NCBI RefSeq assembly: GCF_044324875.1
Contig: NZ_CP172185.1
Length of the DNA: 64,000 nucleotides
Reading direction: 5' to 3' (one strand)
From: Escherichia coli
GTDB lineage: Bacteria; Pseudomonadota; Gammaproteobacteria; Enterobacterales; Enterobacteriaceae
Shown: one piece after another, positions 4,620 to 54,780 of the stretch
Layout: every line of letters starts with the position of its first letter
Position numbering within the stretch: position 1 is the first letter of the stretch
Notes under the pieces: model-generated
Told to the model about the DNA's origin: nothing
Database searches by the model: none
The model's input: the letters and a program-made list of their open reading frames with translations, nothing else
Program-made: the position numbers and the translations under genes

Positions 4620-4848
4620 GGAAAGCGCACATCGACACCGGCACGGTACGATACAAACACCAGTGACTGGCGGGACGAAGGGAATGACGAATCAGTCAGG
4701 AAATGATGACAAACAGTTGGCTGGCCAGAGGGTGCCAGCAGAAAGATGAGCGGGAGTTGTCAGCGCCAGCACCAGGGACAGGGCTGATTTCCACAATACC
4801 AGCGCCGGCATTTCGCACATTGCCAGCGTACTGGCATTACAACACGTT

Positions 4849-5085
4849 TCATGCTGCTGCTCCTCGTGATTCCTCAATTCGCTGCTGCATCCACTGCTCC
4901 ACTTCACTTTTGTACCAGCGGCTGCTGCGCCCCAGTTTGATGGGTTTAGGGAAATGGCCTTCACTGATCAGCTTGTAAAACCATTTGTCGGTCATACCAG
5001 TGAAGCTGGTGATGTAGTTCATGTCGATCAGGGGATCGTCGGCACGCAGCAATACGCTGTCGTGACCTGTCATTGAGGTCAACAT
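4849..5085 (-). CDS. alpA: AlpA-family phage/island transcriptional regulator
   Basis: 78 aa; MNYITSFTGMTDKWFYKLISEGHFPKPIKLGRSSRWYKSEVEQWM is the AlpA HTH signature. Confidence 0.8.
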   Translation of the reverse strand: MLTSMTGHDSVLLRADDPLIDMNYITSFTGMTDKWFYKLISEGHFPKPIKLGRSSRWYKSEVEQWMQQRIEESRGAAA

Positions 5086-5153
5086 GGTCAGAATGTCCTC
5101 TGTGAGATTTATGAATGTTGGGCAAATGCGGGTGAATCTGCTGAGCTGAGCTT

Positions 5154-5756
5154 TCAGAGCTGGCCTGCTACGGGATACCAGGGATTACCGGCGAGGTAAC
5201 GGGCTTCCGGATCGCGCACACCACGACGATCGCGGGCGAAATCACTGAACGCCCATATCAGCTCTTTGAGTCTCTCTTCGCAGTCCGGTGAACAACTGTC
5301 CAGCACCACATCCCGGGTTATCTGTTTCTGGTACGGTGCTGCTTCACCCGGTGACGCGAAGCCCAGTACGTTGCTCCAGGCATCCAGAATCAACCGGTCC
5401 AGCTCAGGGCCGTCGAAATATTCCTGTCTGACGCACAGCACCACGTGGTATTCCGGTTTTTCAGGATGACGGGTCAGGAGCCAGCAGAGGTCGCGTCCGG
5501 GGGTTGCATTCATCAGCGCACTGACGGTTTCGATAAAGGCCATACCGAACCAGGTTTTTCTGTCGCTGAAGATGTTGCCATGTTCCCCCGGCAGACGAAG
5601 CAGGATCCGCCGTATCCTGGAGCCGGACTGCTCGCGCAACACACGGTTGAGAACGCCGATGATTTTGTTCTGATAAGATGGCCAGAAGGGCGCCATGCTA
5701 TAGTCGAAATAAGGGATAGCATTCATAAGATATGTTCCGTTATACGCAGCCCACAA
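5154..5756 (-). CDS. Inovirus Gp2-family (YfjI/YagK-like) protein, paralog 2
   Basis: 200 aa; island backbone position immediately after alpA. Confidence 0.55.
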   Translation of the reverse strand: MWAAYNGTYLMNAIPYFDYSMAPFWPSYQNKIIGVLNRVLREQSGSRIRRILLRLPGEHGNIFSDRKTWFGMAFIETVSALMNATPGRDLCWLLTRHPEKPEYHVVLCVRQEYFDGPELDRLILDAWSNVLGFASPGEAAPYQKQITRDVVLDSCSPDCEERLKELIWAFSDFARDRRGVRDPEARYLAGNPWYPVAGQL

Positions 5757-6082
5757 CGCGTCCTGCCCGTGGATGCGCTGACGTGTTATGGCTTGCGTAT
5801 GGGGTTGATGGAATAAGTGAAAAACCGCGGCAGAACGGGAAGATCAGGTAACCGACAAGGGACAGAACACCGGATGCAGGTTCAGAATGAATGATCTCCG
5901 TTGACTTCGGTTCACATCATTAAGCAGGACAGTAAGGTTTTACCGACGGAGTGTTTCCAGGAGCGAAAGCAGAGAAAAATACCGTTGCATGACTTCAGGA
6001 CGACTTTTTCAGAAAACGAGCTAAGGGCGTCAGCCAACGTCCTGTAGCATAAGCTCAGGCACCGGATGTCGTTTTACAGGGC

Positions 6083-6814
6083 TCACCTGCCATCCAGCAG
6101 ACGCCCCGGCCCACGACTGCAACCATAATTACGTTGCCCGGAACCGTCATGCTGCTTCGTCTCATATTTCACGAGATAACTGGCTCTGTTCCGGGCTTTC
6201 TGCAGCGCTTCCACATCACCACGCTTGATCCAGAGAACAGCGGCTTCACCCGGCTTTTTTTCTGAAGCCTTCCTGGTATCAGAACATCCACCCGACAAAG
6301 GCGTGTCATCGGAAGAAGGGCGAGCATCAGACGATGCTGGTTTACGGGAAGGCGTCCACCTGGAAAAATGGACCAGGCCATCGCCTTGCCAGGCCTCAAG
6401 ATGCAGGGCGCTGCACCATGCCTCCAGGATCATCGTCGCCAGCGAAGATGGTTCGCTGAAATCCCCTGGCGAGCACCAGGTATCTTTGTTGAGCAGCAAT
6501 ATCACGTGATAATGTTTCCTGCCTTTTTCCTTGCCAAACTCCCGACACCAGAAATAACGCAGAGTGGTTGCACGCACACGCTTGTTGGCACGTCGTTTTT
6601 TCCGCTGGTAAGCCTGGATTTTGGCTTTCAGGGATTCGAAAAAACGAGAAATCACCGCTGAATCCGGATCGGGATCCATGATGGTGACAGGCATATACTC
6701 AGGGAAACGTAAATCCACCCGGATTAACGAGACGGCACGGTGCTGCGACAGGGCACTGTCGAGAAGGCTGTCAAAACGGGATAACCAGTAAGCATTGTGT
6801 ATTGGTTGATTCAT
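6083..6814 (-). CDS. Inovirus Gp2-family (YfjJ/YagK-like) protein, paralog 3
   Basis: 243 aa; LIRVDLRFPEY ... HYHVILLLNKD pattern. Confidence 0.6.
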   Translation of the reverse strand: MNQPIHNAYWLSRFDSLLDSALSQHRAVSLIRVDLRFPEYMPVTIMDPDPDSAVISRFFESLKAKIQAYQRKKRRANKRVRATTLRYFWCREFGKEKGRKHYHVILLLNKDTWCSPGDFSEPSSLATMILEAWCSALHLEAWQGDGLVHFSRWTPSRKPASSDARPSSDDTPLSGGCSDTRKASEKKPGEAAVLWIKRGDVEALQKARNRASYLVKYETKQHDGSGQRNYGCSRGPGRLLDGR

Positions 6815-6849
6815 GATGAGAGATCTCCGTTGATTTGGATTGACTTCAC

Positions 6850-8390
6850 ATCATTAATCACCGCGGTAAAACTTTACGGCATCATGTCATTAAGCAATGC
6901 TACAACTCTCTGATTAAGAGTGATTGAAACGGAACAAACCATCCCGGAACGAAAAGATAATCCTGCACACAGCAGCAAAACACGCAACAACAGCATGAAT
7001 GGATTTAAAAACGACATGGACGACGAGAAAAGCCTGAAGGGAAAAGGATCCACAGAACATTCGAACAAAACACCAGAAACGCAACCAGAACGCTTCCTGG
7101 CAATGCAAATCAACAACAACGCCAAAACCTACAGCTTAATCACACAACTCAATCACGAATGCGAATGACACGTTTAAAACCTGTTTACAGATAACGCCGT
7201 AACACGATCATCCCCATCACCATCAGAATCGATTTTCTCATCCCGAAAATGTTACGTTTCACTACGCACCATAAAAACGATTAACCATCGATAACGTAAA
7301 TCTCATCTGAATCAAAAAACCAAAACCAATCATCACACTTTCGCAATGCAAGAAGAAAAACCACATCATGACGAAAACAATGACCTTACATGAAAAAGCA
7401 AAACGTCAGGAATCGTTAATGCCTCAATCTGATTGTTATCAAAACATCCAGAAAGTCGTTTAACAGAATCGTCGTAAGCACATCGAAAAGAACGTCAGAT
7501 CACCTCAGGAAAGTTCGGGTTGATTTAGCGTAAAGATACTTTTCTCAGCTTAACGTCGAAACACAAACCAAAAACCACAAACAACCAAAGCTCAGGAAAG
7601 GTTAAACGTCACATCAGTAAAATCGAATAGCAGATTGATTGCTTAAACAGGAAAGATTGTTTTACAGCAGCATTAAACTGATTTAGTTAACGTAAAATCA
7701 GAACTGACAGGTTTACTAACTTGGATGTGTATCAGTTCAAAAATGTGTACAGCAATGCGTAATGAAACACATTTAAAGGAGATTAATGGGAAAAGTGTGT
7801 AAATGCGTAAACATGCACTAATGAATCACTGAAGGAATACATACAAAACGACTTAATGAAAACATAAAAGGACCTAATGGAAAAGGTGTATATAATACCA
7901 TATCCGACATTCTCAACATCTTAAGACATCCATGCAGACTGAATGTTGGTTTCAGTTTTTCACGGTAAGCATGAATCTTTTCTGTTCAAAAGCAGAGCAG
8001 ATTTACTCTGGAATTATTTTTCTTACTCCGTATTCTGTACAGCAAAAACTTGTGCTAACTTTACAGCAAACCATCATAATCAGCGTCTGTAGTCCCATCG
8101 CTTTACCCCATGAAAGTGAATCCATATGATGTGAGAGAGATAAGTCATCGTATCCGGTAAACACTGCTTACTATAACATAAGATCATTCAGTCAGTTTTA
8201 TCTCTGAACTGACGATTATGGCATGCTCATTTATATGGCTCACAGAGGAGTGTTATTATCCGTAAGCTTTAATCATCAAATCACATGACCATACCAAACT
8301 GGCGCTATATCAGCTCATTTGACGCTCATTCCCTTTAGATTTCTTTATGTGTTTTTTGTCGATAATTAAAATGTAATATAAATTTAATAT
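6850..8390. other. About 1.5 kb ORF-poor, strand-skewed (A+C-rich top strand) intergenic region with recurrent short motifs
   Basis: No ORF of 60 aa or more on either strand between about 7170 and 7930; recurring AACGT(C/A)A..ATC, TCAGGAAAG and TAATGRA motifs. Confidence 0.6.
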
Positions 8391-12725: not shown

Positions 12726-12947
12726 ATGAAAATCATCACCCGTGGTGAAGCCATGCGTATTCACCAACAGCATCCTGCATCCCGTCTTTTTCCGTTCTGT
12801 ACCGGCAAATACCGCTGGCACGGCAGCACTGAAACGTATACCGGTCGTGAAGTGCAGGATATTCCCGGTGTGCTGGCTGTGTTTGCAGAACGTCGTAAGG
12901 ACAGTTTTGGCCCGTATGTCCGGCTGATGAGCGTCACCCTGAACTGA
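12726..12947 (+). CDS. YeeT-family (DUF987) small protein
   Basis: 73 aa, MKIITRGEAMRIHQQHP...; position before the antitoxin gene. Confidence 0.75.
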   Translation: MKIITRGEAMRIHQQHPASRLFPFCTGKYRWHGSTETYTGREVQDIPGVLAVFAERRKDSFGPYVRLMSVTLN

Positions 12948-12961
12948 GTCAGGGCATTCTG

Positions 12962-13594
12962 ATGAGCAGAATTATCACCATCACAGTGTATACGCTGGAT
13001 GAACTTTCCTGCCCGGCACGGGAAAAAGCCCGCGACGGGTACCGTCAGCATCATGCTGACAGCAACTGGTATGAAAACGTGTATGAGGACGTCAGGGAGG
13101 TCTGTGGCATTTTCGGAATTGACCTCTGCCAGCGTGTTATCCGTCTCAGCAACGGCAGGTTTATGGAAGAGCCGTGCATCTGGTTCAGCGGATTCTGCAG
13201 CCAGGGACGGAGCCTGTTTTGAAGGACGCTGGCACTGGCAGTCAGCAACAACCAGGAGAGTCCGGGAGTATGCCCCGCAGAACCGTGAGCTTCATCGTAT
13301 CGCGGATGCCCTGCAGGCGGTGCAGAAACGTAACTTCTGGCAACTGCAGGCTGAAATCCACCACCGGGGACGTTACTGCCATCCGTTATCACTGTTACCC
13401 GGAACAGTCCGACTGGTCAGGCTATGACAGCCGATGCGGAAGCCGCTGTCAGCGAAGCCCTGCGCGACCTGGCCTTCTGGCTGTACCGTCAACTGGAAAA
13501 CGAGTACGACCAGATGACCTCAGACGCCGCTGTGGATGAGGCCATTCTCATCAATGCATACATCTTCACCGAAACCGGTCAGCGCACCGGCTGA
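12962..13594 (+). pseudogene. Apparently disrupted gene: protein-like segments in three reading-frame pieces (12962-13222, about 13200-13427, 13424-13594)
   Basis: All three segments translate to plausible protein sequence but are separated by frame changes; the last piece (57 aa) is below the ORF-track threshold. Confidence 0.35.
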
Positions 13595-13643: not shown

Positions 13644-14012
13644 GTGTCAGACACACTCTCCGGGATAACTCATCCCGACGACAATCACGACCGCCCCTGG
13701 TGGGGGCTTCCCTGCACAGTGAGGCCCTGTTTTGGCGCCCGTCTGGTGCAGGAGGGTAACCGCCTGCATTACCTTGCCGACCGCGCCGGCATCAGAGGCC
13801 GGTTCAGCGATGCGGATGCATACCATCTGGACCAGGCCTTTCCGCTGCTGATGAAACAACTGGAACTCATGCTCACCAGCGGTGAACTGAATCCCCGCCA
13901 TCAGCATACCGTGACACTGTATGCGAAGGGGCTGACCTGCGAAGCCGACACCCTCGGCAGTTGTGGTTACGTTTATCTGGCTGTTTATCCGACGCCCGAA
14001 ACGAAAAAGTAA
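13644..14012 (+). CDS. Type IV antitoxin, CbeA/YeeU/YfjZ family
   Basis: 122 aa, near-identical to recalled YeeU (MSDTL.G.T.PDDNHDRPWWGLPCTV...TPETKK). Confidence 0.9.
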   Translation: MSDTLSGITHPDDNHDRPWWGLPCTVRPCFGARLVQEGNRLHYLADRAGIRGRFSDADAYHLDQAFPLLMKQLELMLTSGELNPRHQHTVTLYAKGLTCEADTLGSCGYVYLAVYPTPETKK

Positions 14013-14102: not shown

Positions 14103-14513
14103 ATGAAATTATTACCCGACACACATGTACGGGAGGCATCGTGCTGCCCGTCTCCCGTCACCATCTGGCAGACACTGCTCATCCGTCTGCTGGACCAGCA
14201 CTATGGCCTCACACTGAATGACACACCGTTCGCTGATGAACGTGTGATTGAGCAGCATATTGAGGCCGGCATTTCACTGTGCGATGCGGTGAACTTTCTC
14301 GTTGAAAAATACGCACTGGTACGTACCGACCAGCCGGGATTCAGCGCAGGAGCCCCGTCGCAGTTAATCAACAGCATCGATATTCTCCGGGCCCGCCGGG
14401 CAACAGGCCTGATGACACGTAATAACTACAGAATGGTAAATAACATTACCCTGGGTAGCATCCGGGGGCGAAACGATGAAACTTTCCCTGACGCTGGAAG
14501 CCGACAGCATTAA
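14103..14513 (+). CDS. Type IV toxin, CbtA/YeeV/YpjF family
   Basis: Start trimmed to MKLLPDT; [67 protein letters not shown] matches YeeV. Confidence 0.85.
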
Positions 14514-14898
14514 CGTGCAGGCACTGAACATGGGGCGCATTGTCGTTGACATTGATGGTGTAAATCTCGCTGAACTGATTAACAAGGTCGCTGAATACGG
14601 TTATTCACTCCGCGTGGTGGATGAACGTGACGCTACCGAAACACCGGCGACTTCTGCCAGCTCTCATCAGTTGCCGGAAGACAATACAGTGATACAGAGC
14701 GTGATGCCATTAACCACTGAAACAGCGCTGGATATCCTCATTGCGTGGCTGCAGGACAATATCGACTGCGGGTCCGGAATTATTTTCGACAACGATGAGG
14801 ATAAAACGGATTCGGCAGCACTGCTGCCCTGTATTGAACAGGCCAGGGAGGATATCCGTACCCTGCACCAACTGCAACTTCTGCACCAGAACCGGTGA
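14476..14898 (+). CDS. YeeW-like protein
   Basis: 140 aa; overlaps the 3' end of the toxin gene, as yeeW follows yeeV in CP4-44. Confidence 0.55.
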
Positions 14899-45236: not shown

Positions 45237-46328
45237 ATGCGTTTTCTGCGCCGACCAATATCGCTGCGCCAACGGCTGATATTGACCATTGGGGCCATTT
45301 TGTTGGTGTTTGAGCTGATCAGCGTCTTCTGGCTATGGCATGAAAGTACCGAGCAGATTCAGCTGTTTGAGCAGGCGCTACGCGACAATCGCAACAACGA
45401 TCGCCACATCATGCGTGAGATCCGCGAGGCGGTCGCCAGCCTGATCGTCCCCGGCGTCTTTATGGTCAGCCTGACGCTATTTATCTGCTATCAGGCGGTA
45501 CGCCGCATCACCCGGCCGCTGGCGGAGCTGCAAAAAGAGCTGGAAGCGCGCACCGCCGACAACTTAACGCCTATTGCCATTCACAGCGCCACCCTCGAAA
45601 TCGAAGCGGTGGTTTCGGCGTTGAACGATCTGGTCAGTCGCCTGACCAGCACGCTGGATAACGAAAGGTTGTTTACCGCTGACGTCGCGCACGAACTGCG
45701 AACGCCACTGGCGGGGGTGCGTTTGCATCTGGAACTGCTGGCGAAAACGCATCACATTGATGTAGCACCGTTAGTGGCTCGACTTGATCAGATGATGGAG
45801 AGTGTCTCCCAGCTGCTGCAACTGGCGCGTGCCGGACAGTCATTTTCTTCCGGGAATTATCAACATGTAAAACTGCTGGAAGATGTCATTCTCCCCTCGT
45901 ATGACGAACTCAGTACCATGCTCGACCAGCGACAGCAAACCCTGCTATTGCCAGAGAGCGCCGCCGACATCACCGTTCAGGGTGATGCAACCCTGCTGCG
46001 GATGTTATTGCGAAACCTGGTAGAAAACGCCCATCGTTACAGCCCGCAAGGCAGCAACATTATGATTAAGCTGCAAGAAGATGGCGGAGCGGTCATGGCC
46101 GTTGAAGATGAAGGACCGGGTATTGATGAGAGTAAATGCGGGGAGTTGAGTAAAGCGTTTGTACGTATGGACAGCCGTTATGGCGGGATTGGTCTGGGGT
46201 TAAGTATTGTCAGCCGCATTACACAGTTGCATCACGGGCAGTTTTTCCTGCAAAACCGGCAAGAGACTTCCGGCACGCGGGCCTGGGTACGGCTGAAGAA
46301 AGATCAGTACGTGGCAAACCAGATATAA
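45237..46328 (+). CDS. basS: Sensor kinase BasS (PmrB)
   Basis: Track start is TTG at 45228; first ATG at 45237 gives 363 aa. Confidence 0.9.
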   Translation: MRFLRRPISLRQRLILTIGAILLVFELISVFWLWHESTEQIQLFEQALRDNRNNDRHIMREIREAVASLIVPGVFMVSLTLFICYQAVRRITRPLAELQKELEARTADNLTPIAIHSATLEIEAVVSALNDLVSRLTSTLDNERLFTADVAHELRTPLAGVRLHLELLAKTHHIDVAPLVARLDQMMESVSQLLQLARAGQSFSSGNYQHVKLLEDVILPSYDELSTMLDQRQQTLLLPESAADITVQGDATLLRMLLRNLVENAHRYSPQGSNIMIKLQEDGGAVMAVEDEGPGIDESKCGELSKAFVRMDSRYGGIGLGLSIVSRITQLHHGQFFLQNRQETSGTRAWVRLKKDQYVANQI

Positions 46329-46393
46329 AGAAAGCTGCTGACCACCAGCACGCTGAACACGGTAGTTAAACTTTCATAAACACGGTTTTTCAT
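46304..46393 (-). CDS. pmrR: PmrR, 29-aa membrane peptide; not in ORF track
   Basis: Manual translation MKNRVYESLTTVFSVLVVSSFLYIWFATY; 3' end overlaps the basS 3' end convergently. Confidence 0.8.
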   Translation of the reverse strand: MKNRVYESLTTVFSVLVVSSFLYIWFATY

Positions 46394-46504
46394 TGCACTC
46401 TCCTCCGTTAACCTGGAGGAGAGTATGCGCGTCAGAGATTAAGTGAACCTTAAGACTTCAATTGGCCTGATAAGACAGCGTCACATCAGGCCATCCGTTT
46501 CAGC

Positions 46505-52114: not shown

Positions 52115-52210
52115 TATTGTGATCGGTAAGCCGGATAAGGCGCTCGCGCCGCATCCGGCAACGATGCCGACAGCCTGATGCGACGCTGACCGCGTCTTAT
52201 CAGGCTTCCC
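52115..52210. repeat. REP/BIME-type extragenic palindromic element
   Basis: GCCGGATAAGGCGC...GCATCCGGCA and GCCTGATGCGACGCTG...CTTATCAGGC motifs. Confidence 0.6.
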
Positions 52211-54679: not shown

Positions 54680-54780
54680 GTAAGTCGGATAAGACGCCAC
54701 GGCGTCGCATCCGACAATGTGCAGACGTTGATGCCGGATGCGGTGCAAGCACCTTATCCGGCCTACAGACCGGAGCCAAA
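54680..54780. repeat. REP element between phnD and phnE
   Basis: GTCGGATAAGACGCC...GCGTCGCATCCGACA and GCCGGATGCGGTGCAAGCACCTTATCCGGCCTAC. Confidence 0.6.

Follow-up and report, generated by a model that had tools for sequence, protein, structure and literature searches.

A DUF8835-family pseudogene broken by two deletions in a decaying CP4-type island of Escherichia coli

How should a protein-like signal be read when it is split over three segments and two reading frames? We took up this question for positions 12,962 to 13,594 of an Escherichia coli window (the whole stretch of DNA analyzed, 64,000 nucleotides), where an earlier note had described three protein-like segments, the first and last in the same frame, and had proposed one gene of roughly 200 aa with two indels that compensate each other, sequencing errors, or separate small genes. 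The three ORFs are present where they had been placed: 12962-13222 (86 aa), 12999-13427 (142 aa, including ...ELHRIADALQAVQKRNFWQLQAEIHHRG...), and 13424-13594, which encodes 56 aa and not the 57 aa first given. Modulo 3, positions 12962 and 13424 both give 2 and 12999 gives 0, so that pieces one and three share a frame and piece two lies one base off. Taken together, the ORF list and the translation place the pieces colinearly on the plus strand of window positions 12962-13594, as parts of one gene. The flanking YeeT-like and antitoxin genes were also as described, a DUF987 gene upstream and a YeeU-family antitoxin gene downstream. The locus is laid out as follows.

12726..12947, plus strand: intact upstream DUF987 (YeeT-like) gene, 73 aa; found as an ORF and annotated in AR_0085 as WP_000692315.1, DUF987 domain-containing protein
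12962..13594, plus strand: broken 214-codon gene, read here as a DUF8835 pseudogene; same coordinates from PGAP in AR_0085, and alignments against intact orthologs
12962..13204, plus strand: segment 1, codons 1-81, in the frame of ATG 12962; family HMM positions 1-82, E=1.6e-27
13204..13206, plus strand: site of the 2-bp deletion, GGG against GGGGG in intact orthologs; DNA alignments
13206..13385, plus strand: segment 2, ancestral codons 83-142, in the +1 frame (DGACFEG...RYCHP); family HMM positions 83-141, E=3e-22
13220..13222, plus strand: premature TGA for a ribosome starting at 12962, giving a product of 86 aa; ORF list, sequence, and translation
13386..13387, plus strand: junction of the 10-bp deletion; DNA alignments
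13388..13594, plus strand: segment 3, codons 147-214 and stop, in the original frame; family HMM positions 147-213, E=5e-18
13644..14012, plus strand: intact downstream YeeU/CbeA-family type IV antitoxin gene, 122 aa; found as an ORF and annotated in AR_0085 as WP_039023579.1

We built a family HMM from distant homologs and used wrong-frame translations as controls. The three pieces matched the consecutive stretches of the model given above, and none of the six wrong-frame control translations matched it. Together, the pieces show full-length homology to a single-domain family of about 214 aa, DUF8835; the idea that homologs might keep only one piece as a gene was not borne out, as all three are colinear with this one family. 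Moreover, other E. coli have an intact ortholog in the corresponding position, a single uninterrupted ORF flanked by the DUF987 gene and yeeU/cbeA, which answers the earlier call for an alignment to orthologous islands. In strain 23555, this ORF is 645 bp long (WP_000094916.1, 214 aa, annotated as "DUF8835 domain-containing protein"), and in strain XDL, it is 684 bp long (WP_000086769.1, 227 aa). The window copy shares about 90-92% DNA identity with the intact E. coli genes. It is 100% identical to the AR_0085 record, where PGAP marks the same coordinates as pseudo and frameshifted; as a frameshifted pseudogene, the locus is, therefore, already known from the public annotation of identical E. 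coli genomes. We conclude that 12962-13594 almost certainly represents one gene of 214 codons that has become a pseudogene through two deletions, of 2 bp and 10 bp.

The lesions were mapped with the intact orthologs of strains 23555 and XDL, plus further E. coli alleles, as references. In the DNA alignment, the window copy has exactly two gaps relative to the intact orthologs, of 2 bp and 10 bp (12 bp in all). The first shortens a G run from GGGGG to GGG at 13204-13206; the second, about 180 bp downstream, removes ACAGCATGGA (ACTGCATGGA in XDL) between CATCCGT and TATCAC at 13386/13387. The 2-bp loss shifts the coding frame from 2 to 0 and the 10-bp loss shifts it back, which explains the three-piece picture exactly; because 12 bp are lost in total, the last third is again in its original frame. 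The 2-bp deletion hits codons Q81-G82-D83 of SGFxSQGDGAxFxG, where conservation within the family is highest and SQGDGA is nearly invariant. The 10-bp deletion removes codons Y143-D146, just past H141-P142 and the conserved Y139-x-H141. Translation from ATG 12962 ends at the TGA at 13220-13222, which lies inside the shifted stretch, five codons past the 2-bp deletion, and a full-length protein is not made. The proposal of two compensating indels thus held in part: there is one gene, of 214 aa, and there are two indels, both deletions, but the compensation is only apparent, since the stop ends translation within the shifted stretch, leaving the restored frame cosmetic and the gene dead rather than rescued. 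No single uninterrupted frame of the window copy covers the whole domain, and neither the SGFxSQGDGAxFxG motif nor the Y139-x-H141 region is kept as in the family. In contrast to intact DUF8835 (WP_000094916.1), the window copy, with its two deletions and premature stop, is not a working member.

We then compared the region by megablast with 5,426 complete E. coli genomes, which gave matches in thousands of records. Near-full-length copies were found in 1,942 of the 5,426 genomes. In an evenly spaced E. coli sample, 39 of 41 full-length copies kept the intact length of 645 bp, which argues against a three-piece structure shared among orthologs, and each of the five intact-length copies that we inspected contained an intact ORF. 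Given these two counts, the gene is normally functional. Among the best 60 matches listed, the 633-bp copy of the window recurred in at least 31 records at ≥99.8% identity and in at least 33 at ≥99%; the sources of these records are many different laboratories and hosts, with poultry frequent among them.

Four readings other than a single dead gene were weighed against these data. Expression of the 86-aa N-terminal fragment or the 56-aa C-terminal ORF is possible. That the 86-aa fragment, though truncated, is still produced and retains part of its function or a changed one (binding a partner, for instance) is improbable, even with the start codon and the tight 14-nt spacing from the DUF987 gene to ATG 12962 both preserved and with the allele widespread, especially in poultry isolates, among the best 60 matches listed. 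Two or three independent small genes (86 aa, the middle ORF, and 56 aa) would be compatible with two pieces that open with ATG and with an 86-aa piece translatable from the original start signals. Nevertheless, this reading is very improbable: the pieces line up in order along a single conserved one-domain family of about 214 aa, which comprises thousands of clusters; ATG 13424, which opens the 56-aa ORF, corresponds, on comparison with the intact proteins, to Met159 in the interior of the ancestral gene; the middle ORF is informative only from the deletion site onward; a promoter scan found no sigma-70-like site inside 12962-13594; and an AF2 model of the family places all of the pieces in one compact domain.

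Sequencing or assembly errors in a gene that is really intact here would find some encouragement in the 2-bp lesion, which sits in a homopolymer G run, a classic site of error. However, the 10-bp deletion lies outside any repeat, other complete genomes carry either lesion without the other, the block recurs at a second chromosomal site, and the 633-bp copy recurs in the numbers and the diversity of sources given above for the best 60 matches listed. Errors can, therefore, be set aside almost completely. Programmed recoding, with a +1 shift near 13205 and a −1 shift near 13386, would exploit a net loss that is a multiple of three and yield a near-full-length protein only four residues short, but it is hardly credible, because in that product the QGDG motif, nearly invariant in the family, would be one residue short and the YSMD stretch would be missing, no recognized slippery sequence was seen by eye at either junction, the unshifted intact gene is the norm (39 of 41 sampled copies), both shifts fall where the window copy has lost bases that orthologs keep, and alleles of the same group with a single lesion or a nonsense mutation point to decay.

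These further alleles bear on how the doubly broken copy arose. The 2-bp deletion occurs alone in TUM9803 and ERP001, the 10-bp deletion occurs alone in Ch1 and GPEC1040, ACN002 combines the 10-bp deletion with a 5-bp deletion, and EC0585 and SCEC020001 carry nonsense mutations only. The double-lesion allele is inherited, and each of its lesions is also found alone in other strains. Compared segment by segment, the window allele is a mosaic. Of 242 sites in its 5′ segment, all but 2 agree with TUM9803, which carries the 2-bp deletion; over the 183 bp of the middle segment, there is no difference from TUM9803, ERP001, or Ch1. The 3′ segment is the same as in the 10-bp-deletion alleles of Ch1, GPEC1040, and ACN002, and two SNPs close to that deletion on its 3′ side are shared with them. 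From the nine alleles compared, we infer that the double-lesion allele arose either when two copies with one lesion each, paralogous or allelic, recombined or when a gene that was already dead took a second hit. The simplest reading would be one crossover or gene-conversion event within the shared middle segment, between two copies that were already broken. The other course, one of serial decay, would take a de novo second deletion with linked SNPs, which is possible. In any of these cases, the lesions may have accumulated under relaxed selection in a decaying island.

Decay of this gene also takes other forms in the species. A further 886 or so records had nothing better than a partial match, which in the rows sampled was an unannotated stretch comprising the final 94-113 bp of the gene. 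E2348/69, for example, has the last 113 bp of the DUF8835 gene between yeeT and yeeU (1201-1313 of the locus record), again unannotated and the remnant of a deletion of about 520 bp. One idea is that the retained 3′ end carries expression signals for cbeA-cbtA. The protein collection additionally contains in-frame DUF8835-CbeA fusions from E. coli assemblies (342-343 aa; P0016, P0004, and P0022), in which CbeA is full-length and joined by the six-residue linker LPEDFI, together with an antirestriction-DUF8835 chimera (P0036), a DUF8835-DUF5983 chimera (P0045), and an internal duplication (P0001). The part of the module around the DUF8835 gene is clearly prone to deletion and rearrangement.

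The setting of the pseudogene is a CP4-type E. coli genomic island, with the gene order GTPase, DUF932, antirestriction, RadC/JAB, DUF987, pseudogene, YeeU/CbeA, CbtA, DUF5983, DUF957, and DUF4942. The pseudogene itself lies between the yeeT-like DUF987 gene and yeeU/cbeA. Relative to XDL, cbtA (14103-14479) has a 1-bp deletion near 14457, close to its 3′ end, as well as two 3-bp deletions, and PGAP calls it frameshifted in identical records. With cbtA broken and cbeA (13644-14012) intact, the latter is an orphan antitoxin. The 140-aa ORF at 14476-14898 is a chimera in which DUF5983, lacking about 330 bp (junction near 14631), runs into DUF957. In matching records, DUF4942 (from 14983) is truncated and followed only by an integrase fragment. 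As cbtA, DUF5983, DUF4942, and the integrase are damaged too, the island is decaying. The degraded block (DUF8835 gene broken, cbeA intact, cbtA broken, and DUF5983 truncated) adjoins cadC in AR_0085 and B771 and kpsF in APEC E19035; the two sites indicate that the block was moved or copied between islands after it had decayed.

A scan with Rfam gave no RNA family within 12962-13594. Elsewhere in the window, and unrelated to the pseudogene, Rfam families scored above their gathering thresholds at 46297-46462 on the minus strand (STnc630, 181 bits) and, for two copies of naRNA4, at 52129-52206 on the plus strand and 54683-54763 on the minus strand (85 and 65 bits).

To what kind of protein did the broken gene once belong? 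The family is large, with 2,545 matches in a collection at 90% identity and 3,483 clusters at 50% identity, and nearly all members are 200-225 aa long. With the intact ortholog as query, Pfam-A returned no family even at E≤10 (the library evidently predates DUF8835), and NCBIfam, searched with the three pieces and the intact ortholog, returned only a chance match (E=0.06). The PHROG family phrog_5162 matches the intact protein over its full length, and PHROG assigns it no function. Sequence searches of the PDB, with a single protein and with a profile, gave chance matches only. The AF2 model confidently predicts one compact alpha/beta domain that spans all three pieces, and no PDB relative of the predicted fold was found. 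A literature search found no paper characterizing the family and none for DUF8835.

Neighboring genes in other hosts describe the family further. In Klebsiella michiganensis, the DUF8835 gene lies between cbeA and cbtA (5610-6996 of the locus record), and in E. coli, it lies upstream of cbeA. On a Mesorhizobium ICE, it sits among genes for ArdC, ParB, DUF4326, a large helicase, and Toprim, with neither CbtA/CbeA nor any toxin-antitoxin (TA) pair nearby. On a Pseudosulfitobacter (Roseobacter) plasmid, genes for SSB, DUF932, and RadC precede it and a ParS/RES pair follows, and on a Sphingomonas plasmid, it comes after genes for ParB, an ArdC-like metallopeptidase, and PAPS reductase. In Alphaproteobacteria, a conserved, unannotated ORF of about 138 aa runs 8 nt into the start of the DUF8835 gene (5592-6008, 6589-7008, and 4823-5233 in three locus records; two copies are 58% identical), which suggests that it is a translationally coupled partner of the DUF8835 gene. 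Homologs also occur in virulent phages of Caulobacter, Acinetobacter, Pseudomonas, Klebsiella, and E. coli. In giant Caulobacter phages and in Klebsiella phage fENko-Kae01, the homologs lie inside the terminal repeats, DNA that presumably enters the cell first. Caulobacter phage CcrColossus has its homolog without an adjacent toxin gene or TA pair.

Database names for the family vary, and some read "antitoxin of the YeeV-YeeU system." One Acinetobacter phage record names its homolog "RNA polymerase binding protein," for which there is no visible basis. We compared the intact protein with the known systems that such names evoke. YeeU/CbeA (PF06154), of the CbtA-CbeA system, is the immediate neighbor of the broken gene and is joined to family members in the fusions described above. 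An identity with this antitoxin was rejected: the intact ortholog has no match to the Pfam family CbeA_antitoxin and no sequence similarity to YeeU/CbeA, DUF8835 genes also occur on ICEs, plasmids, and phages without CbtA/CbeA, and K-12-type copies of the CbtA-CbeA module work without a DUF8835 gene. The Phd/YefM antitoxins (COG2161/COG4118; about 80-90 aa, encoded directly upstream of the toxin) have the name alone in common with the family. The 214-aa length differs, there is no match to the Pfam family PhdYeFM, the predicted alpha/beta fold is without a PDB relative, and toxin-less contexts exist; a literature search under the family name returned only papers using the COG phrase for Phd/YefM. 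From these comparisons at the sequence level, "antitoxin" would appear to be a propagated and unsupported label. A known defense or anti-defense protein was rejected as well, as PADLOC models matched neither the intact ortholog nor three distant relatives.

The gene neighborhoods are reminiscent of another class of proteins. Leading regions of conjugative elements carry establishment and anti-defense genes, among them those for ArdA, ArdB/KlcA, ArdC, SSB, and PsiB (Samuel et al. 2024, PMC11541004). We did not find the DUF8835 family named in PMC11541004. In E. coli, the DUF8835 gene is accompanied by antirestriction (PF03230), RadC, and DUF932 genes, and in Alphaproteobacteria, it is accompanied by ArdC, ParB, SSB, DUF932, and RadC genes. 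The likeness is one of gene neighborhood only, whereas the protein itself has no homology to any known anti-defense protein. Because the distribution over mobile elements and the neighborhoods fit, we propose, on guilt by association, a role in helping incoming DNA become established. With low confidence, then, the DUF8835 protein may be an accessory protein of mobile elements of the establishment or anti-defense type rather than an antitoxin. The data leave room for a role linked to TA modules: the gene adjoins TA pairs in E. coli, in Klebsiella, and on the Roseobacter plasmid, and in-frame fusions to CbeA exist, but the Mesorhizobium ICE and phage CcrColossus carry it with no TA pair nearby.

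By itself, the window locus matters little; it is an ordinary pseudogene, and the island around it is decaying. Its single-lesion and double-lesion relatives, together with the degraded block at two sites, make a compact example of paralogous islands that exchange segments during decay. The wider interest lies in the family: large, borne by mobile elements, with a fold that has no solved relative and a name that is unsupported, DUF8835 is a reasonable candidate for study. It is possible, if rather doubtful, that DUF8835 is a new early-entry (establishment or anti-defense) factor common to conjugative elements, mobilizable islands, and virulent phages and that its repeated inactivation in CP4-type islands of E. 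coli marks islands that no longer move. If so, the frameshifts, the nonsense mutations, the widespread 113-bp 3′ remnant, and the fusions to neighboring genes would be varied ways of inactivating it, and the window copy would be one such fossil.
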